Shown here: positions 2,315 through 20,260 of the stretch, one piece after another
Position numbering within the stretch: position 1 is the stretch's first letter
How the letters are laid out: every line of letters begins with the position of its first letter
From: an uncultured Gemmatimonadales bacterium
GTDB taxonomy: Bacteria; Gemmatimonadota; Gemmatimonadetes; Longimicrobiales; Longimicrobiaceae
Direction: 5' to 3'
NCBI GenBank assembly: GCA_963716255.1
Contig: OY970303.1
Coordinates: 7,767,217-7,791,216 of the forward strand
Length of the DNA stretch: 24,000 nt
Translations under genes and position numbers: made by a program
The notes under the pieces: generated by a model
What the model was told of the DNA's origin: nothing
What the model saw: the letters and a program-made list of their open reading frames with translations, nothing else
Database searches by the model: none

Positions 2315-3793
2315 GTGCAGAAGACGGTGAGCCGCCGCATCGCGTCGGGCTTCGCGGTGGCGCTGGGGCTGATGCTGGTGGTGACGGCGGTGGCGGGGCT
2401 CGCACTGCACCAGGCCACCCGGGCGTACCAGGCCGCGCTGAAGCAGCAGCGGAACAACGAGATCCCCGCGCTGGAGACCCGGCTGGCGTACATGGAGGCG
2501 AACCTCAACTTCGTCCGCTACCTCCTGGCGCCCTCCGACAACTGGTCCCGGCGGCGCGAAACGGCGGTCGCGGGCGTCATGGCCCAGCTGGACACGCTGC
2601 GGCGCACCTCCCACAGCCCCGAGGCGCGCGAGCTCTGGCAGGACGCCATCGCGTCCATGTCGGACTGGAACGACGCCTCGCGCGATGCCATGGAAGCGGC
2701 GCGCAGCGGGAGCATGGCCGACGCGCTGCGCATCCGCGACACGCGCACCTTCCCCACCGGCACGGCGTTCATCCGGGCGGTGGATGACGGCCTGCAGGCG
2801 GAGCGCCGCGAGACCGACGACACCGTCAGGGCGGCCGAGAAGGCCGCACGCTGGACGATGTGGGGGCTCGCCGGCGCCGCGCTCCTCGCGCTGGTGGTGG
2901 GCGTCGCCTCGGCGCTGCGCCTGTACCGCGACGTGAGCGACCCGCTGCGCGAGTCCACCGGCGTGCTCGCCTCCAGCGCAAGCGAGATCCTCGCCGCCAC
3001 CCGGCAGCAGGCCGCCGGCGCCAGCCAGTCCATGGCCGCCGTGGCCGAGACCGCCGCCACCGTCGACCAGGTGGCCCAGACCGCCGAGCAGGCGGCGCAG
3101 CGGGCCCGCATGGTGGCCGAGTCGGCGCAGCGCACCGCCGAGATCGGCAAGACCGGGCGCCGCGCCGTGGAGGAGTCACAGGCCTCCATGGCCGGGGTGC
3201 GCGAGCAGGTGGAGTCCATCGCCGCCAGCATCCTCGCCCTCGCCGAGCAGGCCCAGGCCATCGGCGAGATCATCGCCACGGTGGACGATATCGCCGGGCA
3301 GACCAACCTGCTCGCCCTGAACGCCGCCATCGAGGCGTCGCGCGCCGGCGAGTACGGCCGCGGCTTCGCCGTGGTCGCGCAGGAGATCCGCAGCCTGGCG
3401 GAGCAGTCGCGGGGCGCCACCGTGCAGGTCCGCCAGCTCCTGGGCGAGATCCAGCGCGCCACCACCACCGCGGTGATGACCACCGAGGAGGGGACCAAGC
3501 AGGCCGCCGTGGGCGCGCGCCAGGTCGCCGAGGCCGGCGACACCATCCGCCTCCTCGCCGAGACCGCCTCCGACGCCGCGCAGGCCGCCGCGCAGATCGT
3601 GGCCTCCGCCGGGCAGCAGGCCTCGGGGATGGGGCAGATCCGCCAGGCCATGCGCGACATCCAGACGGCCACCCAGCAGAACCTGTCCGCCACCCAGCAG
3701 ACCGAGCGCGCCGCCCAGGACCTGAGCCGCATCGGCCTGTCGCTGATGGAGCTGGTGGGGACCGACCGCCGGGCGGGGCCGCGCCCGGGATGA
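2315..3793 (+). CDS. Methyl-accepting chemotaxis protein (two TM segments, ~150-aa periplasmic domain)
   Basis: The GTG start at 2315 follows AAGGAGGA (2303-2310). Hydrophobic segments are [19 protein letters not shown] and [19 protein letters not shown]. The conserved MCP hairpin-tip sequence is present ([40 protein letters not shown]). Confidence 0.92.
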
Positions 3794-5966: not shown

Positions 5967-7022
5967 ATGATCCGCGTGCTCGTCGCCGAGGACTCCCGGG
6001 CGGAGCGCGCGCTCCTGGTGTCCATCCTGGAGAGCGATCCCGCCATCCGGGTGGTGGGCGAGGCCGCCGACGGCGCGCAGGCCGTGGAGATGACGCTGCG
6101 CCTCCGCCCGGACCTCGTCACCATGGACGTGCACATGCCTCTCCTGGACGGGCTGGAGGCCACCCGCGAGATCATGGTCCGCGCCCCCACGCCCATCGTG
6201 GTGGTCTCCTCCAGCGTCCGTCCCGACGACATCACCCTGTCGCTGCGCGCCACCGGGGCCGGGGCCCTCGCCGCGGTCGCCAAGCCCGAGGGCCCCGCCT
6301 CGCCCCGCTTCGAGGAGGACCGCGCCCAGCTCGTATCCATGGTCCGGGCCATGGCCGACGTCAAGGTGGTGCGCCGCTGGAGCGCCCGCCCCGAGGGCGG
6401 GGTTCCCCCGGCGCCCACGCCCGCCCCGCGGGCCCCCGTGCGCCTGGTCGCGGTCGCCGCCTCCACCGGCGGCCCCGTCGCCCTCCAGACCCTCCTGTCC
6501 GCGCTCCCCGCCTCGTTCCCGGTCCCCGTGCTGGTGGTGCAGCACATGTCCCGTGGCTTCGTGGAGGTGCTGGCGCGCTGGCTCGGCACCGCCACCGCCC
6601 TGCGCGTCAGGGTCGCCGTGGCGGGCGAGCGCCTAGTCCCCGGCACCGTGTACCTCGCCCCCGACGACCAGCACCTGGGCACGACCCCCGACGGCGCCGC
6701 CGTGGAGCTGTCCGCCGCCCCGCCGCTGGAAGGCTTCCGTCCGTCCGCGTCGCACCTGTTCCGCTCCGCCGCCGCCGCGTACGGCGAGTCGCTGCTGGCG
6801 GTGATCCTCACCGGCATGGGGAGCGACGGCGTGCGCGGCCTGCGCGCGGCGCGGGCCGCCGGGGCGCTGGTGCTGGCCCAGGACGAGGAGTCCAGCGTGA
6901 TCTACGGGATGCCGCGGGAAGCGGTGCAGGCGGGAGTCGTGGGGGCCGTGCTGCCGCTCGAGTCCATCGGACCGCGGCTGGCGAGTCTTGTTTCCGCGAG
7001 TGGGGTGGACGATTTGTTCTGA
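5967..7022 (+). CDS. cheB: Chemotaxis response regulator protein-glutamate methylesterase CheB
   Basis: The ATG at 5967 lies 8 nt after the cheA stop. It has an N-terminal receiver (IRVLVAEDS, LVTMDVHMP) and a methylesterase domain (AASTGGP, LVVQHM, GMGSDG, IYGMPREA). The product is 351 aa. Confidence 0.92.
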   Translation: MIRVLVAEDSRAERALLVSILESDPAIRVVGEAADGAQAVEMTLRLRPDLVTMDVHMPLLDGLEATREIMVRAPTPIVVVSSSVRPDDITLSLRATGAGALAAVAKPEGPASPRFEEDRAQLVSMVRAMADVKVVRRWSARPEGGVPPAPTPAPRAPVRLVAVAASTGGPVALQTLLSALPASFPVPVLVVQHMSRGFVEVLARWLGTATALRVRVAVAGERLVPGTVYLAPDDQHLGTTPDGAAVELSAAPPLEGFRPSASHLFRSAAAAYGESLLAVILTGMGSDGVRGLRAARAAGALVLAQDEESSVIYGMPREAVQAGVVGAVLPLESIGPRLASLVSASGVDDLF

Positions 7023-7032
7023 ACGGGGAAGG

Positions 7033-7176
7033 GAACTGACGGTTTTGGGCGTGCCCCCGGCTGGCGCCGGGGTCGGGCTTCGGCTCCGTAGGGCTGCAAA
7101 CAACGCAGCCCAACGGAGTCGAGCCCCGCGAAACGGCCCGCGGGTCTCGCCCCTTCGGGCCGGAATCCCTCACGCG
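7033..7176 (+). repeat. R1 multi-hairpin repeat, copy A, 5' body
   Basis: This aligns with 10084-10230, including an identical 44-nt block (7047-7090 = 10097-10140). Hairpins are CCCCGGC-TGGC-GCCGGGG (7055-7072), GGGCTGC-AAACAAC-GCAGCCC (7091-7111, nested in the CTCCGT/ACGGAG outer stem) and GAG-C-CCCGCG-AAACGGCC-CGCGGG-T-CTC (7121-7148). Confidence 0.9.
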
Positions 7177-7415
7177 GGGCTCGCGCTGGCGTCGGCTGGC
7201 CCCCCACCCGGCTCGCTTGAGGCTCGCCACCCTCCCCCGCAAGCGAGGGAGGGCTGACCGAAGGTCAGGCAGTTTGCCGTTGCGACCTGCGCCGGGAGGT
7301 CGGGGAAGGCTGCGCAGGAGGTGCGTTGTTCGAAGCCAGCGTGATCCCGCCCTCGCACGGAGCGTGAGCGAGTGCTCTGCGAGTCCCTTCGGGTTCCGCA
7401 CCGACGGAGCAGCCG
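7177..7415 (-). repeat. ~240-nt mosaic segment inserted inside R1 copy A (inverted relative to the related mosaic at 12941-13090)
   Basis: This segment is absent from R1 copy B, where body and tail are only about 14 nt apart. It contains the inverted R2 copy (7198-7253). It also has perfect small hairpins CTGACC-GAA-GGTCAG (7254-7268) and GACCT-GCGCCGGG-AGGTC (7285-7302). Weaker similarity to the reverse complement of 12941-13031 includes TTTGCCGTT vs TTTGTCGTT and ACGGAGC. Confidence 0.7.
7198..7253 (-). repeat. R2 repeat, copy A (inverted): hairpin plus conserved 29-nt box
   Basis: The reverse complement reads CCCTCCC-TCGCTTGCGG-GGGAGGG followed by TGGCGAGCCTCAAGCGAGCCGGGTGGGGGGCC. This box matches the one at 13056-13086 apart from one extra G, and it matches 10319-10349 closely. 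Confidence 0.88.
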
Positions 7416-7463
7416 CCCCCGGCCGACCCCAAACACCGGAGGCTGCCGAAGCACACCGTCGTT
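7416..7463 (+). repeat. R1 repeat, copy A, 3' tail
   Basis: CCCCCGGCCGACCCCAAACACCGGAGGCTGCCGAAGCACACCGTCGTT aligns with 10245-10290 (CCCCCGGCCAACTCAAACACCGGAGCCCGCCGGAGCACACGCTGTT). Confidence 0.75.
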
Positions 7464-7469
7464 CTCTCC

Positions 7470-8009
7470 CTACTCGGCGGCCTCCACCATCTCCAGCACC
7501 TCGCGGAGGGTGGTCTCTCCCCGGTCGCGCGCGTACCACTTCCGCACGTCCCGGTAGATCTCCTCCGGAGGTCGCGTGCCGGCGCTCTTTTCACGCAGCA
7601 CGAACTCCTGGAGCTCCGCGGGGCGCGGGCCCCAGCGGCCACGCGGGCGGAACTGCTCGTCGAGCAGGACGACGAGCGGGATGGAGCGGGCGGCGCCGGT
7701 CAGGTACGCGTCCATCAGCTCCGGGTTCTCGTCGCGCTTCACCACCCGCATCTCCAGCTGCGGCGCGGATCCGGCGAGCGCGGCGATCACCGGGACGGTG
7801 TTGGACGCGTCGCCGCACCAGTCCTCCGAGATCACCAGCAGCTTCCAGCTCCCCCCCGCCGCCGCCGCGCGCTCCAGCGCCCACCCGGGCACCCTCACCC
7901 CCCTCGCGACGCCCTCCCACAGGGCGCGGTTGGTCACCACCTCGTCCGCCATGTACGCGTCCCAGGTGAAGCCCCCGTCCCAGTACCCGCGGTAGTCCAG
8001 GTCCGCCAT
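7470..8009 (-). CDS. Thioredoxin-fold protein with single-Cys WCGD motif
   Basis: The 179-aa product runs from the ATG at 8009 (MADLDYRGYWDGG). A thioredoxin-like core is present (KLLVISEDWCGDASNTVPVIAALA, SIPLVVLLDEQF). The upstream part of the 237-aa ORF is Arg/Pro-rich and would run into the divergent gene's leader, so it was rejected. Confidence 0.78.
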   Translation of the reverse strand: MADLDYRGYWDGGFTWDAYMADEVVTNRALWEGVARGVRVPGWALERAAAAGGSWKLLVISEDWCGDASNTVPVIAALAGSAPQLEMRVVKRDENPELMDAYLTGAARSIPLVVLLDEQFRPRGRWGPRPAELQEFVLREKSAGTRPPEEIYRDVRKWYARDRGETTLREVLEMVEAAE

Positions 8010-8195
8010 TTCGGCTCCGCCAATCAGGTCGTGATCGTGCCGGCGCGCCCCCCGCGCCGCCAGTGCCCACGCCCCGTCCGCAAGCTGCGCACCCCGCCGA
8101 TCCGGACGGGGGCGGGCGTGGCTTTTGCATTCCCGCCCCGCTCGGCGCCCGAAGACCGGAGGGTCTTGGACCATCCACTTCAAACCAGACGGGAT

Positions 8196-9311
8196 ATGAT
8201 CACGAAACAGGACCTCGAGCGGCTGATGCAGCGGACGGACGGCGGGCGGCCCGTCCTCTCACTCTTCCTCGACATGTCGGTCAACTCCGACAACAAGCGC
8301 ACCCACAGCACCGTCTTCCTCAACCAGAAGCAGAGCCAGTTCGAGGAGCTGGACGGGAGCCAGGCCCCGGACGTAGGGGATGCATTCGACCGCGTGCGCG
8401 CATGGCTGGCCGACGGCTACGCCGAGGAGAACCGCGGCGTCGTCGTCTACACCGAGGTGGGAGGCGACTGGTTCGAGGCGCTCCAGTTCCCCGTCCCCGT
8501 GCAGAGCCGCGCGACCCTGAGCCCCCGCCCGCTGATCGCGCCGCTGGCGCAGGTCATCGGCAGCTACCACCACCACGGCGTGGTACTGCTGGACCGCGAG
8601 CACGTGCGCATCCTCAGCATCTACCTGGGCACCCTGCTGGACGAGTTCGAGGTGCACGGCGACCCGCTCCCCGTTCCCTCGCACGTGCAGGCCGGGGGAT
8701 ACTCGCAGGCCCGCTTCCAGCGCCGCAAGGCCGAGGAGATGCGGCATTTCTTCAAGGAGTTCGCCAAGGAGGTGGAGACCTTCGTGGGGCGCTACGGGCC
8801 CGACGACCTCATCATCCTGGGCACCGACGAGAACGTCGCCAATTTCCGCGAGTTCCTCCCCGAGCCGGTGCAGGCGATGGTCGTGTACACCGGCAACGCC
8901 TGGGTGGACGACAACACCAGCGACATCCTGGTCAAGATCCAGCCGCACCTGGAGGCGTACGAGGACCGCGAGCGGCAGGAAGTGGTGGAGCGCGTCCGCG
9001 ACCGCGTGGCCAACGACTACCTCGCCACCGCCGGCTTCCAGGGCACGCTCACCGCGGTGCAGGAGGGGAAGGTGGACACCCTGGTGCTCGCCCGCGACCA
9101 GAGCCAGGACGGCACCCGGTGCAAGACCTGCTCGTTCGTGTACGCACGCGGCATGGAGCGCTGCTCGTACTGCGGCTCCAGCGAGCTGGAGGAGGTCGAC
9201 GCCGTGGAGGAGCTGGTGCGCATGGCCGAGGGCCAGGGCGTGGAGATCGCCTTCACCGACCCGGGCCAGGTGGACGACCTCAAGGGAGTGGGGGCGCTGC
9301 TGCGCTTCTGA
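8196..9311 (+). CDS. Bacterial eRF1/aRF1-like protein (VLRF1/baeRF-type putative release factor / peptidyl-tRNA hydrolase)
   Basis: The 371-aa product runs from the ATG at 8196. The central region VPSHVQAGGYSQARFQRRKAEEMRHFFKEFAKEVETFV parallels the eRF1 GGQ-loop region ([33 protein letters not shown], from memory). The C-terminus EGQGVEIAFTDPGQVDDLKGVGALLRF parallels the eRF1/aRF1 C-terminal ...GFGGIGGILRY. A CKTC...CSYC insert lies at aa 309-326. Confidence 0.8.
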   Translation: MITKQDLERLMQRTDGGRPVLSLFLDMSVNSDNKRTHSTVFLNQKQSQFEELDGSQAPDVGDAFDRVRAWLADGYAEENRGVVVYTEVGGDWFEALQFPVPVQSRATLSPRPLIAPLAQVIGSYHHHGVVLLDREHVRILSIYLGTLLDEFEVHGDPLPVPSHVQAGGYSQARFQRRKAEEMRHFFKEFAKEVETFVGRYGPDDLIILGTDENVANFREFLPEPVQAMVVYTGNAWVDDNTSDILVKIQPHLEAYEDRERQEVVERVRDRVANDYLATAGFQGTLTAVQEGKVDTLVLARDQSQDGTRCKTCSFVYARGMERCSYCGSSELEEVDAVEELVRMAEGQGVEIAFTDPGQVDDLKGVGALLRF

Positions 9312-9354
9312 GGGCGTCCGGGACTCACCTTTCCCGAACGACCATTCCGCCCAC

Positions 9355-9387
9355 GGGGGCGCGGGCCATGCCCGCGCCTCCGTTTTT
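9355..9387 (+). terminator. Intrinsic terminator downstream of the eRF1-like gene
   Basis: GGGGGCGCGGGC-CAT-GCCCGCGCCTCC forms a 12-bp stem with one G-U pair. It is followed by G then TTTTT (9383-9387), and lies 44 nt after the stop codon. Confidence 0.7.
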
Positions 9388-9389
9388 GC

Positions 9390-9419
9390 TTGACATTCCT
9401 GCCTGCAGAACCGTACGTT
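9390..9419 (+). promoter_or_regulatory. Candidate sigma70-type promoter for the 9451 gene
   Basis: TTGACA (9390-9395), an 18-nt spacer, then TACGTT (9414-9419). This sits about 30 nt upstream of the ATG at 9451. The -10 element is weak and the promoter consensus for this taxon is unknown. Confidence 0.3.
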
Positions 9420-9450
9420 CCTCGTCCACCCACCTCACACGACACCGCGA

Positions 9451-10077
9451 ATGGCTTCTCCCCAACTGGACGAGGGCGGGCGGAAGCGTCTGCGCGCCGA
9501 CCTGGAATCCCTGGACGGAGTGCGCACCGCCCTGCTCGACGGCTCCCCCCTGGCCGTGTACCTGGTCTGCGACCACGGCGAGCCCGCGCAGCTCGAGATG
9601 CTCGCAGGCGCCGTGCTCGCCCGCCACCGCCTGGACCGCAAGGGCGTCGCCGTCCACGTGTCCTTTCTGGCGGGCCCGCAGCCCGCGCGCCGCGTGCGAT
9701 TCCTCCACGCCCGGGTCGCGCGTCCCAGCGCCGGCCGCGCCGTCGCCTCCGTCGCCCTGGAGTGGAGCGGGACCGTCTACGAGAACGAGACGGACGGGGA
9801 GAGCGGCGAGCCCATCGAGCTGCGCCTGGCCGCGCTCGCCACGCTGCGCGGCATCGAAGCCGTCATCGGCGGCGCGCTGCACTTCAAGCTGGTGGGAATC
9901 CGGACGCTGCGCGCCTTCGACACCGACATGGTCGCCGTCCTCCTGCACACCGACCACGGCAACAGCCCGCTCATCGGCGCGTCGCTGGCGCGCGAGTCGG
10001 TCCACGAGTCGGCCGCCATCGCCGTGCTCAACGCTACCAATCGCCTGCTCGGGAATTATCTCGCCACCGGGGAGTGA
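9451..10077 (+). CDS. Hypothetical protein (208 aa), no recognised domain
   Basis: This is a clean ATG ORF with balanced, non-low-complexity composition and an alpha/beta-like pattern. It lies between a terminator/promoter pair and repeat R1. No family motif was recognised by eye. Confidence 0.65.
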   Translation: MASPQLDEGGRKRLRADLESLDGVRTALLDGSPLAVYLVCDHGEPAQLEMLAGAVLARHRLDRKGVAVHVSFLAGPQPARRVRFLHARVARPSAGRAVASVALEWSGTVYENETDGESGEPIELRLAALATLRGIEAVIGGALHFKLVGIRTLRAFDTDMVAVLLHTDHGNSPLIGASLARESVHESAAIAVLNATNRLLGNYLATGE

Positions 10078-10083
10078 CGGCAT

Positions 10084-10290
10084 GAACTGCGGGTTGGGGC
10101 GTGCCCCCGGCTGGCGCCGGGGTCGGGCTTCGGCTCCGTAGAGCAGCAAACAACGCTGCTCAACGGAGTCGAGCCCCGGCGGAAACAGCCCCGCCGGGTC
10201 TCGCCCCTTCGGGCCGAAATCCCTCACGCGACGGCACGCCCCCTCCCCCGGCCAACTCAAACACCGGAGCCCGCCGGAGCACACGCTGTT
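10084..10290 (+). repeat. R1 multi-hairpin repeat, copy B (uninterrupted body plus tail)
   Basis: The body (10084-10230) aligns with 7033-7176 and the tail (10245-10290) aligns with 7416-7463. Hairpins are CCCCGGC-TGGC-GCCGGGG (10105-10122), GAGCAGC-AAACAAC-GCTGCTC (10141-10161) and GAG-C-CCCGGCGG-AAACAGCC-CCGCCGGG-T-CTC (10171-10202). Confidence 0.9.
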
Positions 10291-10294
10291 GGCC

Positions 10295-10349
10295 CCCTCT
10301 CCCAGAATTGGGAGAGGGTGGTGTGCCTCAAGCGAGCCGGGTGAGGGCC
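10295..10349 (+). repeat. R2 repeat, copy B
   Basis: CCCTCTCCC-AGAATT-GGGAGAGGG (10295-10318) is followed by TGGTGTGCCTCAAGCGAGCCGGGTGAGGGCC. After that comes a second CCGGGTGAGGG unit (10351-10361). Confidence 0.88.
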
Positions 10350-10391
10350 GCCGGGTGAGGGGCTTGCGCGTAAGGCACGGGCAGAAAAGAG

Positions 10392-10423
10392 GCGGCGCCG
10401 CACGGAACTCCGTGCGGCGCCGC
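10392..10423. terminator. Bidirectional intrinsic terminator between convergent genes
   Basis: GCGGCGCCGCACGG-AACT-CCGTGCGGCGCCGC is a perfect 14-bp stem. On the - strand it is followed by CTCTTTTCTG, downstream of the SLT gene stop at 10444. On the + strand it is followed by GAACGTTTTG. Confidence 0.7.
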
Positions 10424-10443
10424 GAACGTTTTGCCCCGGACCT

Positions 10444-11118
10444 TCAGTTGCGCCTGCCGAGGATCTTGCGGGAGTAGCCGTTGTCCGGGTCGATCCCCGC
10501 CCTCACCAGCTGGTCCACCCGTCCCGGGCCGCGGTTGTAGGCCAGCAGCGCCATGTTGACGTCGCCGCGGTACTGCTCGATCAGGATGTTCAGGAAGCGG
10601 AACCCCAGCCGCAGGTTCGTTTCCCGGTCGAAGATCTGGTTGTGGCTGATCCCCGGCCGGAGCAGCCGCGCCGTCTCCGGCATCAACTGCGTGTACCCGA
10701 GGGCGCCCACCGGGCTCACCGCGCGCTGGTTGAACTCGCTCTCCACCCGCACCAGCTCGAAGGCCACCCTGGGGTCGATCCGCTCCGCGAGCGCGATCTC
10801 CTCGATGGAGGCCGCCAGGTCCGCCCCGATCCCGTACTTGGCAGAGTAGCGGTGGATCCGCTCCAGCCGCTCGATCTGCATCTTCTGGAGGTCGATCTGC
10901 CCCTCCAGCGCCTGGAGCTGGGCATCGCCCGCGAGAAAGCGCTGCTGCCACTCCGCCGCCCACCCCGCCCCCGAATCCACCGACCCCGCGCCGAGCTGGA
11001 ACGCGAACACGAAGAGCAGGATCCCGAGCACCGCACCCCGTACCGCCGGCCAGATGTCCGTCCGTGGCTGCTTACGCGCAGCGACGTCTGCCTGCAGCTT
11101 GAGGAGAAGAGACTGCAT
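10444..11118 (-). CDS. Membrane-anchored lytic transglycosylase (SLT domain)
   Basis: The 224-aa product runs from the ATG at 11118, which is preceded by GGAGG. It has an N-terminal TM segment (AVLGILLFVFAFQLGAG), a coiled-coil segment and an SLT domain (VRVESEFNQRAVSPVGALGYTQLMPETA, ALLAYNRGPGRV). The longer ORF to 11241 would overlap moaC, so it was rejected. Confidence 0.85.
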   Translation of the reverse strand: MQSLLLKLQADVAARKQPRTDIWPAVRGAVLGILLFVFAFQLGAGSVDSGAGWAAEWQQRFLAGDAQLQALEGQIDLQKMQIERLERIHRYSAKYGIGADLAASIEEIALAERIDPRVAFELVRVESEFNQRAVSPVGALGYTQLMPETARLLRPGISHNQIFDRETNLRLGFRFLNILIEQYRGDVNMALLAYNRGPGRVDQLVRAGIDPDNGYSRKILGRRN

Positions 11119-11173
11119 AGCGCCTCCGGGCTTGAGTTGACCGGCCCAAAAGCAAGCCCCGTGCCCGGTGACC

Positions 11174-11671
11174 CTACTCCGGACCCGCCTCCCAGGCCCC
11201 GGAGCGGCCACCTTCCTTGCGTACCAAGCGGATAGCTTCAATGCGCATTCCGCGGTCGCGGGCCTTGCACATGTCGTAGATCGTCAGGAGTGCCACCGAG
11301 ACCGCTGTCAAGGCCTCCATCTCCACCCCGGTCCGCGCCTCCACCCGCGCCGTCGCCCGCACCCGCACCCCGGGCAGGGCCTCGTCCGCCTCCAGCTCCA
11401 CCTCCACCGAGCTGAGCGGGAGCGAGTGGCAGAGCGGAATCAGCTCCGCCGTCCGCTTGGCCCCCGTGATGCCCGCCAACTGCGCCACCAGCAGCACGTT
11501 GCCCTTGGGCGCCGTTCCCTCCACGATTGCCCGCACGGTCGCCGCCGAGGTGACGATCCGCCCCTCCGCCACCGCCACGCGGCGGGTGACTTCCTTGTCG
11601 CCCACGTCCACCATTCGCGGCCGCCCCTCCGCGTCCAGGTGCGTGAAGCCGCTCCCCTCCGGGCTCGTCAC
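11174..11671 (-). CDS. moaC: Cyclic pyranopterin monophosphate synthase MoaC
   Basis: The 165-aa product runs from a GTG at 11671, 7 nt after the holB stop. MoaC motifs are present ([68 protein letters not shown]). The start codon is inferred. Confidence 0.88.
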
Positions 11672-11678
11672 GGCGCCC

Positions 11679-12830
11679 TCAAGCCGCGTCCAGCAGGTCG
11701 CGCCGCACGCCCCGCAGCAGGTCGGCCAAGATGAGCTGCGGGTTGACGTTGCCCGAGGCCAGCTCCGCCGCCCGCTGCACCCGGTCCAGGGCCAGGCCCA
11801 CCCCCAGCGGCCGGATGTCCCTTCGGCGCACCACCTGGGACAGCATTGCCGCATCACCCCCGTTCACCACCAGCTCCTCCGCCCCGGAAGCCGACGCCAT
11901 GAGGTCGCGGAGCCACACCGAGAACGCCTCCAGCGTCCCCGTGAACTCCCCGCGGCCGCCCGTGGGCGCCTCCGCCAGCGCCGCCGCCAGCCGCGCCGTG
12001 GGCCCGTCCGCCGTCGCGGCCAGGAGCAGCGCCCGCCCCGCCTGCCGCTGCCGCTCCAGCGGTCCCGGCCCGTCACCCGAGGGGAGGAGCCGCAGCGCCC
12101 GCCCGATCGCCCCCTCCGAGAGCGCCGCCACAGCCTCCGCCTGGTCCGCCGGCATCCCCTTGCGGCGCACCAGGAAGTCGCTCACCTCCTCCGGCGCCAG
12201 CGGGAGCAGGCGCACCGGGAGCACCCGCGAGCGGATGGTGGGGAGCAGCGCCCCGGGCGTGGACGAGGTGAGGATCAGCGTCGTGTCCGCCGGGGGCTCC
12301 TCCAGCAGCTTGAGGAAGGCGTTCGCCGCCTCCTGCGACGACTCCTGCGGCACCATCGCCTCCGCGTCGCCCACCACGAACACCTTGCGCGACCCCATCG
12401 CCGGGCGGTTCCCCGCCAGCTCCTGGAGCGTGCGGATCGCCGCCAGGAAGTACGCCGGGGCCCGCTCGTACGCCGGCAGGTGGAACGGGTCCGCGCGCCG
12501 GGCCACGAGCTCCGCCGCCCGCGACTCCTCCAGCTTCTCCCGCAGCCGGTCCGGCCCCGTCGCGTCGGGACGGGGCAGGGGGAAGAACCAGTTGACGTCC
12601 GGGTGCTCGAGCCGCTCCACCAGCCGGCAGTGCAGGCAGTGCCCGCACGGCTCCGTCGCCGCCTCCGGGCTGTCGCATACGATCCGCTGCGCCAGCCAGA
12701 GTCCGAAGCGCTCCTTGCCGATCCCCTCCGGCCCGTGCAGCAGCAGCGAGTGGGGCAGGTCGTTTTCCCGCACCGACTTCGCCAGCGCGGCCCGCATCTT
12801 TTCGTGGCCCTGGAGGGGGATCAGCGGCAT
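11679..12830 (-). CDS. holB: DNA polymerase III subunit delta'
   Basis: 383-aa ORF with an AAA+ clamp-loader pattern ([26 protein letters not shown]), a Zn module ([18 protein letters not shown]), FVVGDAE and the SRVLPVRL sensor region. Confidence 0.86.
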
Positions 12831-12871
12831 CGTCTCTCGGATCCTGAAGTTCTTCGTGTGGGGCCGCTCCG

Positions 12872-12984
12872 GAGCCCGGCGATACTGCTGCCGGTCTCCT
12901 GCGCGGGTCGCGGAGCCCCGCCAAACAGCCGGCGGGTCTCCGCTCCGGCTCCGTGAGCCTCACGCAAACTACCGCGTGAGTCTC
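12872..12984 (+). repeat. Three tandem GAGC-stem-loop-stem-TCTC hairpin modules
   Basis: The three modules are GAG-C-CCGGC-GATACTGCT-GCCGG-T-CTC (12872-12898), GAG-C-CCCGCC-AAACAGCC-GGCGGG-T-CTC (12913-12940) and GAG-C-CTCACGC-AAACTACC-GCGTGAG-T-CTC (12955-12984). The same module occurs at 7121-7148 and 10171-10202. Confidence 0.85.
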
Positions 12985-13031
12985 CCTCCGCAACATCATG
13001 CGGGAACGGCAGGGAACCGCGGAACGACAAA

Positions 13032-13086
13032 CCCTCCCCCAGAATTGGGGGAGGGTGGCGAGCCTCAAGCGAGCCGGGTGGGGGCC
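13032..13086 (+). repeat. R2 repeat, copy C
   Basis: CCCTCCCCC-AGAATT-GGGGGAGGG (13032-13055) is followed by TGGCGAGCCTCAAGCGAGCCGGGTGGGGGCC. Confidence 0.88.
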
Positions 13087-13155
13087 TGCCGTGCCGTAAC
13101 CGCGGTTGCAGGCTGTGGCGCTTCACGCTCCGCGTGAACCGTTGAACCCTGTCCC

Positions 13156-14457
13156 CTACCGTCTCCTCAGCCATGCAAGCGGGTCCACCGCCTGGCCGCC
13201 GGGGGAGCGGATCTGGAACTCCACGTGGGGGCCCTCCGGCGTGCCCTGGCCGCCCACCGAGCCCAGCACCTGGCCGCGGGCGATCTCGGCGCCGTCGGCG
13301 ACGCGCACGTCGTCCAGGTACAGGTACAGCGAGTAGTAGCCGCCGCCGTGGCTCACCACCACGCTGGGGCCGTAGCCCTCGAAGGGCTCGGCGAGCACCA
13401 CGGTGCCGGACTCCACGGCCTTCACCGGCGTCCCCCGCGGCGCGCCGATGCCGATGCCGTTCCAGCGCAGCACCGTGCCGCTGGGCGTCGTCGTGCGCCC
13501 GAAGCGGTACAGGACGCGGCCGTCCACCGGCCAGCCGAGCTGGCCCAGGTCGCTGGTGGACAGGCGGGACTCGCCGCTGCTCGCCGCGGGGGTGGGGGCG
13601 CGGGGGGGCGGGGCGGGCGCGGCGGCCTTGGGGTCGCCCCCGGCGGCGCGGGCGGCGGCCGCCCGCGCCGCCGCTGCGCGGCGCTCCGTTTCCCTGCGGG
13701 CGGCTTCGCGGCGCTCGGCCTCGCGGCGGCGGCGCTCCAGCGTGGCGATCAGCGAGCCGAGCTGGCGCTCGTCGCGCGCCAGGCGCGTCATGCGGCCCTG
13801 CGTGGTGGTCGCCTGGCGCTGCACGATCCCCAGCGTCTTCCTGCGCTCCTCGCGCAGCAGCTCCAGCTGCTGGTGCTCCGTCAGCCGCTCGCCCTGCAGC
13901 ACCTGCACCTCCTGCAGGCTGCGCTTCAGCTGCCGGTCGCGCAGCACCAGCTGCTTCTCCAGCTCGCGCACCTCCTCCAGCAGGGTGCGGTCGTGGCGGG
14001 CCACCAGGTGCAGGTACTTGTAGCGGTTCAGCAGGTCGCTGAAGTTCCCCGCCGTGAGCAGCACCTGGGCCGACTGCAGCGGGCCGCGCTTGTAGATGTC
14101 GCGCAGGCGGCGCTGCAGCAGCGCGCGACGCTCCGCCAGCCGGTCCTGCGTGTCCAGCAGCTCGCGCGTGGTCACGGCGATCTGCCGCTCCGTGCGGTCC
14201 AGCTGGAACTCCACCTCCTCCAGCACCCCCGCCGAGACGTCCACCTGGCGGCGGAGGATCTGCTCCTCCCCCGACAGGTTCCTCACCTGCGAGCGCAGGT
14301 TCTTGAGCTCCTCCGCCAGCTCGCGCCGCTCCTGGCGGATCTCCTGCAGGCGGCGCTGGCTCTGCGACAGCTCGCGGGTGGTGTTCTGCTGCGCCGCGGC
14401 GGGCGCGGCGGCGAGCAGCAGCGCGGCGAGCGCGGCAAGGCGGACCCTCCCTGCCAT
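13156..14457 (-). CDS. envC: EnvC-like murein hydrolase activator (coiled coil plus degenerate LytM/M23 domain)
   Basis: The 433-aa product runs from the ATG at 14457, 5 nt after the ftsX stop. It has a signal peptide (RLAALAALLLAAAPAAAQQ), a long heptad-like coiled coil and a C-terminal M23 fold (GTPVKAVESGTVV, GPHVEFQIR) with metal-ligand positions substituted. It sits immediately downstream of ftsEX. Confidence 0.85.
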   Translation of the reverse strand: MAGRVRLAALAALLLAAAPAAAQQNTTRELSQSQRRLQEIRQERRELAEELKNLRSQVRNLSGEEQILRRQVDVSAGVLEEVEFQLDRTERQIAVTTRELLDTQDRLAERRALLQRRLRDIYKRGPLQSAQVLLTAGNFSDLLNRYKYLHLVARHDRTLLEEVRELEKQLVLRDRQLKRSLQEVQVLQGERLTEHQQLELLREERRKTLGIVQRQATTTQGRMTRLARDERQLGSLIATLERRRREAERREAARRETERRAAAARAAAARAAGGDPKAAAPAPPPRAPTPAASSGESRLSTSDLGQLGWPVDGRVLYRFGRTTTPSGTVLRWNGIGIGAPRGTPVKAVESGTVVLAEPFEGYGPSVVVSHGGGYYSLYLYLDDVRVADGAEIARGQVLGSVGGQGTPEGPHVEFQIRSPGGQAVDPLAWLRRR

Positions 14458-14462
14458 CCCGG

Positions 14463-15320
14463 TCACACCGCGCGCAGGTGGCGCCGCACCGCGATCGCGC
14501 TGGACAGGAAGCCGAAGGCGGCCCCCGCCAGCACCCCGGCGACCACCCAGGGGAAGGGGAGCCACTCGATGCGGAGCAGCACCCGGTCCACCACGCGGAA
14601 GGCGGCCCACGCCAGCCCCACCGCGAGCGCGCCTCCCAGCAGCCCAGCCACCAGCCCCTCCAGCAGGAAGGGGCGGCGCACGAAGCCGTCCGTGGCGCCC
14701 ACCAGGCGCATGATGGAGATCTCCTCGCGGCGCGCGAACACCGCGATCCGCACCGCCGTCGCGATGACGATGGCCGCCACCGCCGCGAACGCCCCGCCGA
14801 TGATCCCCGCCGCGCCCCCGGCGATCCGCCGCAGCGAGACGATCTTGTCCAGCCAGTCGCGCCCGAAGCGCACGTCCTCCACGAACGGGTACGCGGCCAG
14901 CCCCTTCGCCACCCGCTCCACCGAGGCCGGGTCGCGGGCCCCCGCCTTCAGCCTCAATTCCAGCGAGGCGGGGAGCGGGTTGGTTTCCAGGTCCGTGAAC
15001 ACGTCGCGGAACTCCTCCATCTCCTGCCGCGCCGTCGCCAGCGCCTCCGTCTTGGAAACGTAGCGCACCTCCCCCACCTCGGGGATCAGGCGGACCTCCT
15101 GCTGGAGGATGCGGAGCTGGTCGTCGGTGGCGTCGTCGCGCAGGTAGGCGACCACCTCCACCTTCTCCTCGATGCGGTCGATGGCGCGGCCGATGTTGTG
15201 GGCCGTCAGCCCGAACAGGGCGCCCACGAAAAGCGAGAACGCCACCGCCACCACCGACAGCAGGGTGAGCAGCGGGGTGCGCCGGAAGGCGGAAAGGGCT
15301 TCGCGCAGGGTGTACGGCAT
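14463..15320 (-). CDS. ftsX: Cell division permease-like protein FtsX
   Basis: 285-aa ORF with FtsX topology: an N-terminal TM segment, a periplasmic loop and three C-terminal TM segments. The start lies 1 nt after the ftsE stop. Confidence 0.9.
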   Translation of the reverse strand: MPYTLREALSAFRRTPLLTLLSVVAVAFSLFVGALFGLTAHNIGRAIDRIEEKVEVVAYLRDDATDDQLRILQQEVRLIPEVGEVRYVSKTEALATARQEMEEFRDVFTDLETNPLPASLELRLKAGARDPASVERVAKGLAAYPFVEDVRFGRDWLDKIVSLRRIAGGAAGIIGGAFAAVAAIVIATAVRIAVFARREEISIMRLVGATDGFVRRPFLLEGLVAGLLGGALAVGLAWAAFRVVDRVLLRIEWLPFPWVVAGVLAGAAFGFLSSAIAVRRHLRAV

Positions 15321-17279: not shown

Positions 17280-18590
17280 TCAGAGGTTGATGCGCACGTA
17301 GGTCGTGCGCAGCAGCTCCTCCAGCACCTGCTGCTGGATCTTCTGCTGCTGGACGGATTCGCGCACCTGCTCGCGGAACTCTTCCAGCGTGTACTCGCCG
17401 GCCTCGCGCCGCTCGTTGACCTTGATCACCCCCCAGCCGATGCCGTGGGTCCCGCCCTCCAGCTGCACGGGGCCCAGCACCGAGCCCGCAGCGGCGCCCT
17501 GCATCAGCGGCTGGTACTCCGGGGGAAGCCGGTCCAGCGGCACGTCCTCCGCGAAGCGCCGGTCGGCGGGGGTGTCGTAGCGCTCGGCCAGCGCGTTCAT
17601 GTCCGCCCCGGCGCGCGCGGCCGCGAGCACCGAGTCGGCGCGGACGCGGGAGCGGGCGCGGTCGGCGTCGTCCACCTCCGGGCGGATCAGGATGTGGCGG
17701 GCCTGGCGCTCGCCCGCGCGGGCCTTTTCCAGCTTGATGATGTGGAAGCCGAACGCCGTTTCCACGATCCCGCTCACGTCGCCCGGGCGCATGGCGAAGG
17801 CCACCTGCTCGAAGGGGCGGACCATCTGCCCCTGCTTGAACCACCCCAGGTCGCCGCCGCGCTCCTTGGAGCCGGGATCGTCCGAGAAGCGGCGCGCCAG
17901 CACCTCGAAGTCGCCGCCCTTGCGCAGCTCCTCCACCACCTGCTCGGCCTCGCGGCGCGCCGCGGCCTTCGCCGAGTCGCTGGGCGCCGGCTCCACGACC
18001 ACCTGCTCGAACGAGACCGTGGCCGGACGGGTGCCCAGCTGCGCGCGCTGCGACTCGAACGCGGCCTGGATCTCGGCGTCGGTGACCACCGGGCGCACCG
18101 CGTTCCCCACCCGCTGCGAGATGAAGCGGGCCACCATCATCCGCGAGCGGGTCTGCTCCAGCCGCCTGGCGCGGAACTCGGGCAGGGTGAGCCCGGACTG
18201 GGCCAGCGCCGCGTTGAACTCCGCCTCCGAGGGGAAGCGGCCGCGGATCTCGCGGATCTCCTGGTCCACGGTGCGCTCCACCTCGTCGTCGCCCACGGTG
18301 ACCCCGGCGAGCCTGGCGGCGTTCAGGGCGACCAGGTCGTTGACGCGGGTCTGCACGATCTGGCGCACCATCGTGGCCTGGCCCTCCGCGTCGGCGGGGA
18401 GCTGGCGACCGGCGGCGCGCAGCTGCGCGACCTCCTCCTGCACGTCGGAAAGGAGGAGGGCGGTGTCGCCCACCACGGCCACCACGCGGTCCACCAGCTC
18501 CTCCCCCTGCTGCGGGGCGGGAGCCTGGGTCTGCGCGGCGAGCGCCAAGGGCGCGGCGGCGAGGAGTGCGAACGCGGTACGGATGCGCAT
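17280..18590 (-). CDS. surA: SurA-like periplasmic chaperone / parvulin peptidyl-prolyl isomerase
   Basis: The 436-aa product runs from the ATG at 18590. It has a signal peptide ([20 protein letters not shown]), a SurA-like N-terminal domain and a parvulin domain (FSDDPGSKERGGDLGWFKQGQMVRPFEQVAF, GFHIIKLE). It lies upstream of pdxA, as in the classic surA-pdxA linkage. Confidence 0.85.
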   Translation of the reverse strand: MRIRTAFALLAAAPLALAAQTQAPAPQQGEELVDRVVAVVGDTALLLSDVQEEVAQLRAAGRQLPADAEGQATMVRQIVQTRVNDLVALNAARLAGVTVGDDEVERTVDQEIREIRGRFPSEAEFNAALAQSGLTLPEFRARRLEQTRSRMMVARFISQRVGNAVRPVVTDAEIQAAFESQRAQLGTRPATVSFEQVVVEPAPSDSAKAAARREAEQVVEELRKGGDFEVLARRFSDDPGSKERGGDLGWFKQGQMVRPFEQVAFAMRPGDVSGIVETAFGFHIIKLEKARAGERQARHILIRPEVDDADRARSRVRADSVLAAARAGADMNALAERYDTPADRRFAEDVPLDRLPPEYQPLMQGAAAGSVLGPVQLEGGTHGIGWGVIKVNERREAGEYTLEEFREQVRESVQQQKIQQQVLEELLRTTYVRINL

Positions 18591-18754: not shown

Positions 18755-20260
18755 CTACTGCGGCGCGCCGGGCTGCTGCCCGGGCTGCTGCTGGGGCTGC
18801 GCGGGCATCGCCTCCGGCTGCCCGGGCATGGGCATCGGCACCTGCTGGCCGGGGGCCGGCACGGCGCCGCCGGCGGGCGGGGCGCCGGGCATGGAGGAGC
18901 GGATGGTCTGCATCTGCTTCACCACCTCGGGGAAGGTCCCCTCGTTGACCTCGAAGTCGAACGCGCTGCGCAGCGCCGGGCTGAGCGGCCCCAGCTGCGG
19001 CACCTGCCGCGTCTGGCTGATGGCGCCCTCGATCAGCTCGCGGACGCGCGTCTCGATCACCGTGTTGGCGCCGGAGCCGCGCGGCAGACGGTTGAAGCCG
19101 GCCATGCGCACCATCTCGGAGATGGCCTGGCGGGTGCCGCGCCGGATGGTGTCCAGCTGCGCCGGGGAGGCGGTGATCTTGAGGCGCTCCGCCTGGTTGA
19201 GCAGGAGCTCCCGGTTGGTCATCTGCTCCACCAGGGCGTTGACCTGCTCGTCGGTGGCCTGCCCGAAGCTGCCGCGGGCCTGCGCCGGGAGGGTGCGCAG
19301 GAACTGCGCGAACTCGCCGGTGGTCAGCTCGCCGCCCTTGTACGAGGCCATGGTCCGCGACGCGGCGCGGCCCTTGAGCTCCAGGTTGTCCTGCTCCGCC
19401 AGCTCGCGCGCGATCTTGGCGGCGCCGGGCGCCACCTCCACGCCCGCGGCCTTGGTCAGCGAGTCCACGAAGGACTTCTCGGCGTCCTGCTGGGCCTTCT
19501 GCACCAGGAAGCGGGTGAAGTCCGCGCGCTGCTCGCCCATCTCGGTCTGCCGGCGGTCCTCCAGGCGGATGACGTGGTAGCCGAACGGCGTCTCCACCAC
19601 CGGGCTGATCTGGCCGGGCTGCAGCTTGAAGGCGGCCTCCTCGAAGGGAGCCACCATCCGCCCGCGCCCGAAGTAGCCCAGGTCGCCGCCCTGCACCTTG
19701 CTCCCCGGGTCCTCCGAGTAGCGGCCGGCCAGCGCGGCGAAGTCGGCGCCGCCGGCGGCCTGCGCGCGGACGGCCTCCGCCTGGCGGCGCACGCTGTCGC
19801 GCTGCGTGGGGGTGGCCTCGGCGGGCACCTGGAAGAGGATGTGGCGCGCGCGGATCTCGGCGCCGGGGCCCTCGGAAGCCCACTTCTGCTGGATCTCGGC
19901 CTCGGTGAAGACGGTGTCGGGGCGGATCACCTGGTCGCGCAGGCGCGCCATCACGATCTGGTCGCGCTGCGGGGCGAGGAGCTCGTCCATGTTGATCACG
20001 GCGAGCGTGGTGTCCTCGGCGGCGGCGGTGGCCAGCAGGGTGTAGTCCACCCACATGTTCGCCAGCTCCTGCACCACCTCGGGGGTGGCGGGGATCTGCG
20101 GGTTCGCCGCGAGCATGCGGGCGGCGTCCGCCACCTTCAGCTCCTTGCCTCCGGCCTTGGCGACAACGTCGGTGTGCGAGGTCATGGCCTTGCCGAAGCT
20201 GCCGCATCCCCCGGCGAGAAGGGGGGCGGCGGCCAGCAGGGCCCAGCGGGACAGCTTCAT
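18755..20260 (-). CDS. Parvulin-type peptidyl-prolyl isomerase, probable lipoprotein, with Pro/Gln/Met-rich C-terminal tail
   Basis: 501-aa ORF with a signal peptide carrying Cys ([14 protein letters not shown]) and a parvulin domain ([39 protein letters not shown]). It has a low-complexity tail ([27 protein letters not shown]). Confidence 0.85.

Follow-up and report, generated by a model that had tools for sequence, protein, structure and literature searches.

Two families of structured intergenic repeats built on a shared mismatched hairpin module in Longimicrobiaceae and related Gemmatimonadota

The 24,000-nucleotide stretch analysed here, hereafter the window (contig OY970303.1 of assembly GCA_963716255.1, positions 7,767,217 to 7,791,216, from an uncultured Gemmatimonadales bacterium), has a G+C content of 74% and contains three large intergenic regions, at 7023-7469, 10078-10443 and 12831-13155. 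A first-pass annotation of its sequence had described five instances of a recurrent hairpin module, made up of a foot of GAG and CTC, a C opposite a T (C×T), a complementary inner stem of variable sequence and a loop of AAAC type. All five hairpins were found with the positions, stems and loops it had given, all on the + strand and exclusively within these intergenic regions. The conserved shape that it had proposed stands, but the module is not a free-standing site: it is one helix of two larger composite elements, which constitute two repeat families. Two of the hairpins (7121 and 10171) are helix P3 of a cloverleaf-like element, type A, and the other three form a tandem array, type B. Based on holB homologues, the window belongs to the Longimicrobiaceae (best match 96% identity; Longimicrobium terrae 62%).

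Annotation with Pfam identifies most of the genes around the three regions. The first region lies between a chemotaxis operon (CheR, CheW, methyl-accepting chemotaxis protein (MCP), CheA and CheB; + strand, ending at 7022) and a Thioredoxin_9 gene (7470-8183, -), which is followed by a gene of baeRF family 10, an archaeo-eukaryotic release-factor-like family (about 8196-9311, +). The second separates a conserved hypothetical gene (9451-10077, +) from an SLT transglycosylase gene (10444-11241, -), beyond which lie MoaC (11174-11857, -) and holB (11679-12830, -). The third parts holB from an M23 peptidase gene (13156-14610, -), and FtsX, FtsE, PdxA, two SurA-like genes and Mfd follow from 14463 onward, also on the - strand. 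Flanking genes are convergent at the first two regions and both on the - strand at the third, where the tandem array is antisense to both of its neighbours, holB and the M23 peptidase gene. All three regions fold far more strongly than shuffled sequences (z = -4.2 to -7.9). In agreement with the first-pass annotation, the gene and Pfam annotation of the window contains no candidate protein that could read the hairpins.

The seed of type A is a repeat of about 89 nt (family D3), 93% identical between the window sites around 7121 and 10171, and an alignment of 95 copies from other genomes extends it to an element of about 138 nt with four hairpins in a cloverleaf-like arrangement. In order, the core comprises GCGTG (P1a), the hairpin CCCCGGC-TGGC-GCCGGGG (P0), GGG-C-TTCGG (P1b), P2 with R1, P3 and P4, and at the 3' end CCGAAATCCC-T-CACGC pairs back to close P1b and P1a. 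The consensus of P2+R1, CTCCGT-A-(7-bp stem)-AWACNAC-(stem)-A-ACGGAG, corresponds to the hairpin called R1 in the first-pass annotation; P3 is the reported GAG/CTC module, and P4 is the mini-hairpin GCCC-CTTC-GGGC. The first window copy has a leader at 7023-7042 (+), which fills the space between the CheB stop codon (TGA, 7020-7022) and the core and includes GGGAACTGACGG, a motif of GAACNGC type. Its core of 138 nt (7043-7180, +) contains P1a, P0, P1b, P2+R1, P3 and P4 and scores 152.6 bits with covariance model R1 (E 5.8e-28; E-values are rough owing to a shortened calibration, which leaves bit scores unaffected). Within it, P2+R1 reads CTCCGT-A-GGGCTGC-AAACAAC-GCAGCCC-A-ACGGAG (7084-7118, +), the P3 module GAG-C-CCCGCG-AAACGGCC-CGCGGG-T-CTC (7121-7148, +) and P4 GCCC-CTTC-GGGC (7149-7160, +), the middle pair of which covaries across the alignment (CG in 76 copies, GC in 18). 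The second copy (10093-10234, +; 148 bits with the same model) is preceded by the leader cggcaTGAACTGCGG (10078-10092, +), starting right after the stop codon at 10075-10077, and carries the P3 module GAG-C-CCCGGCGG-AAACAGCC-CCGCCGGG-T-CTC (10171-10202, +). Two compensatory double changes separate the R1 stems of the two copies (GGGCTGC/GCAGCCC and GAGCAGC/GCTGCTC).

The cloverleaf fold is recovered by RNAalifold from the type A alignment, with compensatory changes in 22 of 34 predicted pairs. Across the 43 pairs of the type A structure, 98.5% of 4050 cells hold standard pairs, compared with 86.5±0.3% after column shuffling and 33-49% when the partners are slid by 1-3 columns, and changes on both sides occur in 26 of the 43 pairs; none of 500 shuffles equalled any of these measures. 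The R1 stem is hypervariable, with a mean column identity of 0.645 (0.85-0.996 elsewhere) and 21 distinct 7-nt arms among 95 copies, although its helix remains 99.8% paired. The covariance model derived from this alignment returned 114 matches in 611 kb. Non-Watson-Crick pairs read on the element strand are more often G·T (31, of which 13 stem from one subfamily) than A·C (12), and inspection revealed no covariation that would suggest kissing between the P0 and P3 loops. In a subfamily of P0 (for example in L009, L011 and L017; alignment A1 columns 19-20/37-38), the central CG/CG is replaced by TC on both arms, so that the 13 copies concerned have T×C and C×T mismatches in tandem in place of a compensated pair. 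Pyrimidine-pyrimidine mismatches also occur in P1b and in the extended type B helices, and mismatches of this kind may conceivably serve a structural purpose.

Type B occupies 12860-13031 on the + strand and consists of three modules in direct tandem. The 5' flank GGGGCCGCTCCG (12860-12871, +), identical in the orthologous arrays of loci L094 and L095, leads to H1, GAG-C-CCGGC-GATACTGCT-GCCGG-T-CTC (12872-12898, +), which has a loop variant of first units. H2, GAG-C-CCCGCC-AAACAGCC-GGCGGG-T-CTC (12913-12940, +), and H3, GAG-C-CTCACGC-AAACTACC-GCGTGAG-T-CTC (12955-12984, +), are set apart by linker 1, CTGCGCGGGTCGCG (12899-12912, +; invariant in the window, L094 and L095), and linker 2, CGCTCCGGCTCCGT (12941-12954, +). 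The module starts, 12872, 12913 and 12955, give a period of 41-42 nt. A 3' flank CCTCCGCA and unpaired heptamers of GGAACNGC type (GGGAACGGC, AGGGAACCGC and GGAACGAC) complete the array (12985-13031, +). Type B arrays in general have between one and three modules, repeated directly on a single strand with a period of 38-44 nt, and then an unpaired tail of GGWACNGC heptamers. The fixed frame of the trio is GGGGCCGCTCCG, H1, CTGCGCGGGTCGCG, H2, CGCTCCGGCTCCGK, H3, CCTCCGCA. The loops GATACTGCT, GGTACTGCT and ATACTGC recur in the first units of arrays at other loci, and the odd loop at 12872 is accounted for by the (G)RTACTGC(T) variant that is typical of this position. The linkers themselves lengthen each hairpin helix, adding further pyrimidine-pyrimidine mismatches that can be seen directly in the sequence.

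The module occurs far above the frequency expected by chance. The pattern GAGC-N5-8-AAACNNCC-N5-8-TCTC matches the window four times, compared with 0.00 expected from 100 dinucleotide-preserving shuffles, and a loose scan of both strands (GAG-N-perfect stem of at least 4 bp-loop of 5-11 nt-N-CTC) returned exactly the five hairpins and no others, with C opposite T on the + strand in 5/5. Scanning one genome per species with a 20-base version of the module gave at least 93 loci, and all matches listed are from Gemmatimonadota, namely four Longimicrobiaceae metagenome-assembled genomes (MAGs), one Gemmatimonadota MAG and one Gemmatimonadales MAG. The 1.2 Mb of retrieved DNA contains 222 type A copies and 64 other module arrays, either of type B or left unclassified. 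Within the 587 kb from genome loci, C×T is found in 164 of 194 GAG-N...N-CTC frames; in 61 of these it was not imposed by the search pattern, and the stems of the latter are varied (CAGCC, CCGCGC, CTCGCG, CGGACG, CTCACGC, CACCGG and others). When one stem mismatch was tolerated, 164 of 171 modules still had perfect stems. Among copies missed by the pattern, GAG/CTC covaries to GAA/TTC with C×T retained, and a few have A-T in place of the mismatch.

An unbiased search of metagenomes, anchored only on the P3 flanks (AACGGAGTC, 22-36 free bases, GCCCCTTCGGGCCGAAATCCC), recovered at least 120 contigs from three samples. Among the metagenome matches listed, GAG/CTC is present in all 127 hairpins (44 distinct) and C×T in 117 of the 127, the remainder including seven A-T, one C-G, one A×C and one T×T; stems are almost all perfect and loops are AAACNRCC or GRTACNGCT. 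Many copies in both the genome and metagenome scans are located at contig ends. Overall, loops measure 7-9 nt (AAACNGCC, GATACTGCT, AWACNAC), and inner stems of 5-8 bp sit on the 3-bp foot. The preferences for complementary stems, C×T and an AAAC-type loop that the first-pass annotation had drawn from five instances are upheld in hundreds of copies beyond the window. The inner stems of type A P3 are, however, less variable than it suggested, most of them beginning with CCCG or CCCC, and the truly hypervariable stem is the neighbouring R1.

Both families are confined to intergenic DNA on the 3' side of genes and are neutral in orientation. With genes outside the window called by a codon log-odds caller trained on the Pfam-verified window genes, 1 of 286 elements overlaps a called gene (0 of 222 type A copies, 1 of 64 other arrays). 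Type A copies lie in 50 convergent, 69 co-directional (40 sense and 29 antisense) and 10 divergent gaps, which indicates enrichment at gene 3' ends and depletion from divergent promoter regions; 13 of the other module arrays are sense and nine antisense. Sense and antisense type A copies are of similar frequency and do not differ in their fit to the covariance model (p=0.46 and 0.86 in rank tests), and no correlation was found between element orientation and local GC skew or gene strand. This equal conservation in both orientations suggests a constraint that is intrinsic to the element and does not depend on which way the adjacent genes are read.

Comparison of orthologous sites reveals presence/absence polymorphism. 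Between the M23 peptidase gene and holB, which are 325 nt apart in the window, a type B array in the same antisense orientation is present in L094 (holB identity 89%, gap 407 nt), L098 (80%, 284 nt) and L095 (78%, 1112 nt), and is absent from L097 (86%, 38 nt), L099 (76%, 0 nt) and L096, which is L. terrae (62%, 12 nt). Locus L095, which spans the whole syntenic region, lacks type A at both orthologous positions and has gaps of 122 and 94 nt there, compared with 447 and 366 nt in the window. These differences show gain and loss at single sites. Miniature inverted-repeat transposable elements (MITEs) are characterised by terminal inverted repeats, a target-site duplication and a related autonomous insertion sequence, but the termini of type A offer little to define such events: only the 5-bp P1a pairing (GCGTG/CACGC) closes the element, no target-site duplication is visible, and filled and empty orthologous sites are too diverged for junctions to be read. 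When the arrays of the window, L094 and L095 are compared, the 5' flank and the two 14-nt linkers show one base difference at most, whereas the stems of H2 (CCCGCC, CCCGCC and CAGCCG, respectively) and H3 (CTCACGC, CTGCCGG and CCCCCGG) differ and are fully compensated. Stem turnover is thus much faster than that of the surrounding frame, and may come about through compensatory changes in situ with the frame under strong selection, or through replacement by stems of other copies.

A second feature that the two families have in common is the single-stranded motif RAACNGC, which occurs on the same strand in the hairpin loops (AAACNGCC, ATACTGC, AWACNAC), the type B tail and the type A leader. Whatever the context, the leader (T)GAACNGCGG immediately adjoins the 5' side of nearly all type A cores, and additional GAACGGCTTT units often stand before it. 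RAACNGC is denser in intergenic (4.35/kb) than in coding DNA (1.04/kb), and within 30 nt of the stop codon it is found in sense in 47 genes and as its reverse complement in 10. The stop codon TGA forms the first three bases of TGAACNGC at 20 of 351 TGA stops, roughly nine-fold more than the ~2 estimated from base composition. Examples of this overlap are seen at L031 (2798-3784), L049 (2990-5656) and L063 (2527-3306), and in the window at 10075-10092. Stop codons may be provided or replaced by the elements, or TGAAC may be a favoured site of insertion. The (T)GAACNGCGG junction has the look of a favoured insertion context, which can fall on a TGA stop. The same leader start is seen in L062 after the gene at 6398-7384 and in L023 after the gene at 3596-4585, where TGAACGGC is followed by tandem octamers GTGCGAAA/GTGCGTGA. 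The baeRF family 10 gene and the adjacent hypothetical gene (8196-9311 and 9451-10077) are syntenic in all relatives examined, and we found no evidence linking this pair to the stop-codon-associated repeats.

Several other repeats share the intergenic regions with type A and type B. A T module (families D12, I1 and I8), composed of the hairpin CCCTCCCCC-AGAATT-GGGGGAGGG and a following TGGCGAGCCTCAAGCGAGCCGGGTGGGGG, lies at 13032-13086 (+), directly after the type B array, and on the - strand its hairpin reads as a terminator-like site of the M23 peptidase gene (13056-13031). This repeat of 53-55 nt, CCCTCCCCC-N6-GGGGGAGGG plus TGGCGAGCCTCAAGCGAGCCGGGTGGGGG, occurs three times in the window (7201-7253, -; 10295-10349, +; 13032-13086, +) with 87-91% identity, and recurs in many foreign loci. 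Two copies of a 40-nt intergenic repeat, CCCCGGCCGACCCCAAACACCGGAGGCTGCCGAAGCACAC (family D20; 7417-7456 and 10245-10284), are 80% identical and show the intergenic blocks to be mosaics in which several repeat families are combined. A further S module is placed in sense right after stop codons and consists of GGAACGGC, 3-10 G-rich heptamers (GGGRACA/GGTTACA) and GCCTGCAAC, followed by a hairpin resembling an intrinsic terminator. It is found in L095 at 8889-8945, 12381-12425 (-) and 15135-15177 (-), with a degenerate copy in the window at 13087-13155 (-), and, of the features facing its 5' side, 19 are stop codons and seven are gene starts. Judging by its sequence, a heptamer run with at least four tracts of three or four G could form a G-quadruplex. 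At about 5895-5985 in L100, a more distant relative (66% holB identity), some ten tandem copies of the 9-nt CGTCGTCCC stand immediately upstream of holB. A direct repeat of 191 nt with 72% identity (family D1; 17728-17918 and 19560-19750) lies within two adjacent SurA/peptidyl-prolyl isomerase (PPIase)-like genes and reflects their tandem duplication.

We compared the elements with established classes of structured RNA and DNA. No Rfam 15 family reached its gathering score; the best sub-threshold scores, for 6C (28.6 bits, cut-off 47) and tRNA-Sec (22.1 bits, cut-off 47), appear to reflect only generic hairpins. ARAGORN predicted 0 tRNA or transfer-messenger RNA (tmRNA) genes. None of the five modules was called as an intrinsic terminator and no T-tract follows them, the terminator-like sites in these regions being other hairpins (13056-13031, -; 10423-10392, -). 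Integron attC sites do not match, in that the foot is GAG/CTC in place of the R''/R' core sites (RYYYAAC/GTTRRRY), AAAC is located in the loop and not the foot, and the window has neither cassettes nor an integrase. A ToxI-like antitoxin or an array of clustered regularly interspaced short palindromic repeats (CRISPR) was rejected on the grounds of at most three units, variable parts that are self-complementary stems, and housekeeping neighbours (holB and the M23 peptidase gene). By inspection, CsrA sites were dismissed for the absence of GGA from the loops, ANTAR dual hexaloops for loops of 7-9 nt, a group II intron domain V for want of its bulge and GNRA loop, and a tRNA-derived short interspersed nuclear element (SINE) for want of a T-arm/D-arm match; small self-cleaving ribozymes had no Rfam match. 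There is no sigma-70-like promoter site near the elements, and an extracytoplasmic function (ECF)-type promoter formed by the leader's GGAAC/TGAAC was excluded by eye through its wrong spacing to CGT. Full-text literature searches on repeats or REP-associated tyrosine transposases (RAYTs; REP, repetitive extragenic palindromic) in Longimicrobium or Gemmatimonadetes turned up no account of these elements.

The genes that recur next to the elements encode sigma-54 activators, histidine kinases, ATP-binding cassette (ABC) ATPases, glycosyltransferases and TonB receptors. A transposase gene is present in the orthologous M23-holB gap of L095, where about 9000-9800 encodes a 144-aa Y1 protein (PF01797, 154 bits). 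It was rejected as a RAYT (33.7 bits against a cut-off of 80 for model NF047646) and is a canonical TnpA of the IS200/IS605 insertion sequences (NF033573, 162 bits). This protein does not identify the reader, although it attests to the presence of Y1 HUH enzymes in the clade and to the mosaic regions as landing sites of insertion sequences. Four or five small adjacent hairpins accompany the L095 insertion sequence, with loops (CTAAAG, TGAAAG, CTGAAG and CTGTAAG) unlike those of the module, and a module-like hairpin, ACGACG-AACAGCC-CGTCGT, stands at its edge.

Among known intergenic repeats, pneumococcal BOX elements (boxA-boxB(n)-boxC, with a boxB unit of 45 nt), enterobacterial repetitive intergenic consensus (ERIC) sequences and Correia elements are modular composites. 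Like our elements, they are intergenic repeats assembled from modules of which one is repeated in tandem (with a unit of about 42 nt here), they are predicted to fold strongly, and their copies differ in the number of units. However, there is no sequence similarity, compensatory variation is far more extensive here, loops are conserved and no terminal inverted repeats were found. CsrB and RsmZ are single-copy small RNA genes that repeat a GGA motif in loops and single-stranded spacers and thereby titrate a protein. Like them, our elements show one short motif many times in hairpin loops and single-stranded spacers; unlike them, they exist in hundreds of copies in either orientation, and the motif is RAACNGC.

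REPs and the bacterial interspersed mosaic elements (BIMEs) of Enterobacteria offer a closer likeness. They too are GC-rich short hairpins, non-coding and non-autonomous, and have hundreds of intergenic copies lying downstream of genes where the neighbours are co-directional or convergent (PMC3733652), a conserved stem mismatch and mosaic blocks that include other short motifs. In E. coli, TnpA_REP makes a base-specific contact with the mismatched base of the REP stem, and either repairing the mismatch or randomising the stem abolishes binding (PMC3479197). A REP is defined by a loop of 2-5 nt on a stem of 7-20 bp (PMC6006769) and by a tag, GTAG, GTGG or CGTC, which is unpaired and stands 0-2 nt away from the foot of the hairpin (PMC6006769, PMC3733652). 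A RAYT gene in the genome, usually with REPs at its sides, is a further characteristic. In our elements this 5' tag is absent, the four bases before GAGC being AGTC/AGGC in type A and TCCG/GCGG/CCGT/CCGG in type B, and the GTA(G/A) found 5' of the R1 stem is paired within P2. Their loops, by contrast, are 7-9 nt long with a conserved sequence, and their stems vary freely. Modules stand in direct tandem or within a 138-nt four-helix junction, whereas BIMEs and REPINs (REP doublets forming hairpins) are built of inverted, alternating REPs. Among the features of a REP that we could assess, the tag, the loop size and the inverted arrangement are lacking, and the intergenic high-copy placement is present.

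The REPINs of Pseudomonas are likewise a structured, non-autonomous and intergenic replicator-like population with sequence variants and a conserved secondary structure (PMC3116915, PMC3337134), but they consist of two inverted REPs in one long hairpin and not of a multi-hairpin cloverleaf or a direct triple array. The subterminal hairpins of IS200/IS605 and its miniatures are imperfect hairpins with an unpaired or mismatched base, and are read there as single-stranded DNA (ssDNA) by a Y1 HUH enzyme (PMC6006769, PMC3479197). IS200/IS605 elements insert beside a short specific motif (PMC6006769, PMC3479197). Insertion of this kind could account for the (T)GAACNGCGG junction being constant on the 5' side of type A. 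Unlike these insertion sequences, our elements have no transposase gene within or beside them, and no left-end/right-end pair is defined.

Conservation of the shape, C×T and the AAAC-type loop alongside covarying stems is the hallmark of a structure recognised by a trans-acting factor. On balance, we favour a reading in which the elements are two families of non-coding, non-autonomous structured intergenic repeats of Longimicrobiaceae and related Gemmatimonadota, analogous to REPs, BIMEs and REPINs and read on one strand. We infer that they are propagated or maintained by a trans-acting protein that reads the folded strand via the foot, the mismatch and RAACNGC, and that a transposase-like reader acting on ssDNA confers mobility. 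In such a mechanism, one strand of the element would fold, most likely as ssDNA exposed in replication or repair and possibly as a transcript, and the putative protein would read the GAG/CTC foot, the C×T pyrimidine mismatch and single-stranded RAACNGC in loops, leader and tail. The inner stems would only need to pair and could hence drift or be exchanged freely, and elements would be gained and lost at single intergenic sites, surviving only downstream of genes, where insertion would be harmless. Reading as ssDNA is favoured by orientation-independent conservation, the coming and going of copies at orthologous sites, and the resemblance of the (T)GAACNGCGG junction to a preferred insertion context. 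The more mundane idea that a genome with 74% G+C contains such GC-rich hairpins by chance, or that they are ordinary intrinsic terminators, could draw on intergenic regions full of hairpins and on the location at gene 3' ends; it is exceedingly improbable given zero expected occurrences in shuffles, invariant non-stem nucleotides in hundreds of copies and the missing T-tracts.

Several observations weigh against repeats served by a reader of ssDNA. No terminal inverted repeats or target-site duplications could be defined, and all-against-all clustering of neighbouring proteins yielded only large paralogous families and no gene family specific to the elements. To judge from the alignments, invariant linkers beside differing stems would need either strong selection on each copy or repeated replacement. 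The 5' side of type A lies 6-40 nt past a co-oriented stop codon in 51 of the 62 cases in which it faces a stop, and RAACNGC on the sense strand peaks at stop-codon positions 0-5 (26 motif starts in this 6-nt bin), both of which may point to a function in the transcript. A functional RNA would match the extensive covariation, the conservation of unpaired nucleotides and the surplus of G·T relative to A·C on the element strand just as well. The elements could therefore be a structured RNA acting at the level of the host, whether a stabiliser of 3' untranslated regions (3'-UTRs), a terminator, a multi-site platform or sponge, working like CsrB/RsmZ, for an RNA-binding protein specific to RAACNGC in loops and single-stranded tracts, or an independent small RNA, with spread through the genome being secondary. 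Besides the strongly conserved fold with its invariant loop and junction nucleotides and the position of element starts and motif relative to stop codons, this alternative is consistent with the related S module, (GGGRACA)n-GCCTGCAAC, which is mostly in sense between stop codon and intrinsic terminator, and with the display of one motif in loops and unpaired tails, as with GGA in CsrA targets. We regard it as possible but doubtful, since the 40 sense and 29 antisense type A copies are equally conserved, the window array and its orthologues are antisense to both neighbours, neither a promoter-like site near the elements nor an Rfam family match was found, and presence/absence in close relatives argues against an essential local function. 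By analogy with REPs, which also act in transcripts, DNA-element and RNA readings are not mutually exclusive.

As to the protein itself, the first-pass annotation had suggested a REP-associated transposase, a nuclease or an RNA-binding factor; the conserved shape does fit a trans-acting factor, but a RAYT was not confirmed. Neither motif regular expressions nor tblastn, with the L095 TnpA and an approximate E. coli RayT sequence as probes, detected a RAYT or Y1 gene in 1.18 Mb of element-bearing DNA, the L095 insertion sequence aside, which is a further point against a reader of this kind. It is unlikely that the hairpins are canonical REPs mobilised or maintained by a single-copy RAYT encoded elsewhere in the genome, even though their high-copy short palindromes and placement are REP-like (PMC3733652), the stem mismatch has a parallel in the E. 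coli REP (PMC3479197), CT dinucleotides occur in the invariant TCTC foot, GTA(G/A) lies immediately 5' of the R1 stem, and Y1 HUH transposases are present in the clade (L095). The module foot lacks the tag, the GTA beside R1 is paired in P2, loops measure 7-9 and not 2-5 nt, modules form direct tandems or a cloverleaf in place of inverted pairs, stems vary freely whereas binding in E. coli requires the stem (PMC3479197), and the only Y1 protein, that of L095, is an IS200/IS605 TnpA. A more speculative and rather unlikely reading is a new recognition system of Longimicrobiaceae for single-stranded nucleic acid. RAACNGC, shown in the loops of the mismatched hairpins, in unpaired tails and in leaders that often provide or overlap TGA stops, would be the code for a new transposase or nuclease or for a global RNA-binding regulator that spreads or exploits the hundreds of elements, and stems would be actively renewed by templated palindrome conversion or module exchange and would not just drift. 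Such renewal would account for stems that are hypervariable yet perfectly paired, next to linkers that stay the same between orthologous sites.

Among soil phyla, Gemmatimonadota rank with the most abundant, but their non-coding genome is essentially uncharted. The elements described here fill a large share of the intergenic DNA in one clade, with the matches listed coming from six genomes and three metagenomes, and in the window the array-bearing block puts 325 nt between the M23 peptidase gene and holB, which are only 38 nt apart in L097. The covariance model can be used to annotate these repeats, which fragment metagenome assemblies. Covariation of this quality is usual only in bona fide functional RNAs, and the 138-nt four-way junction is a good system in which to study how repeats are recognised and propagated, with the C×T mismatch and the loop heptamer as directly testable candidate binding determinants for the putative protein partner. 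Located on stop codons and between the genes of operons, the elements probably shape transcript ends and operon structure in these bacteria.

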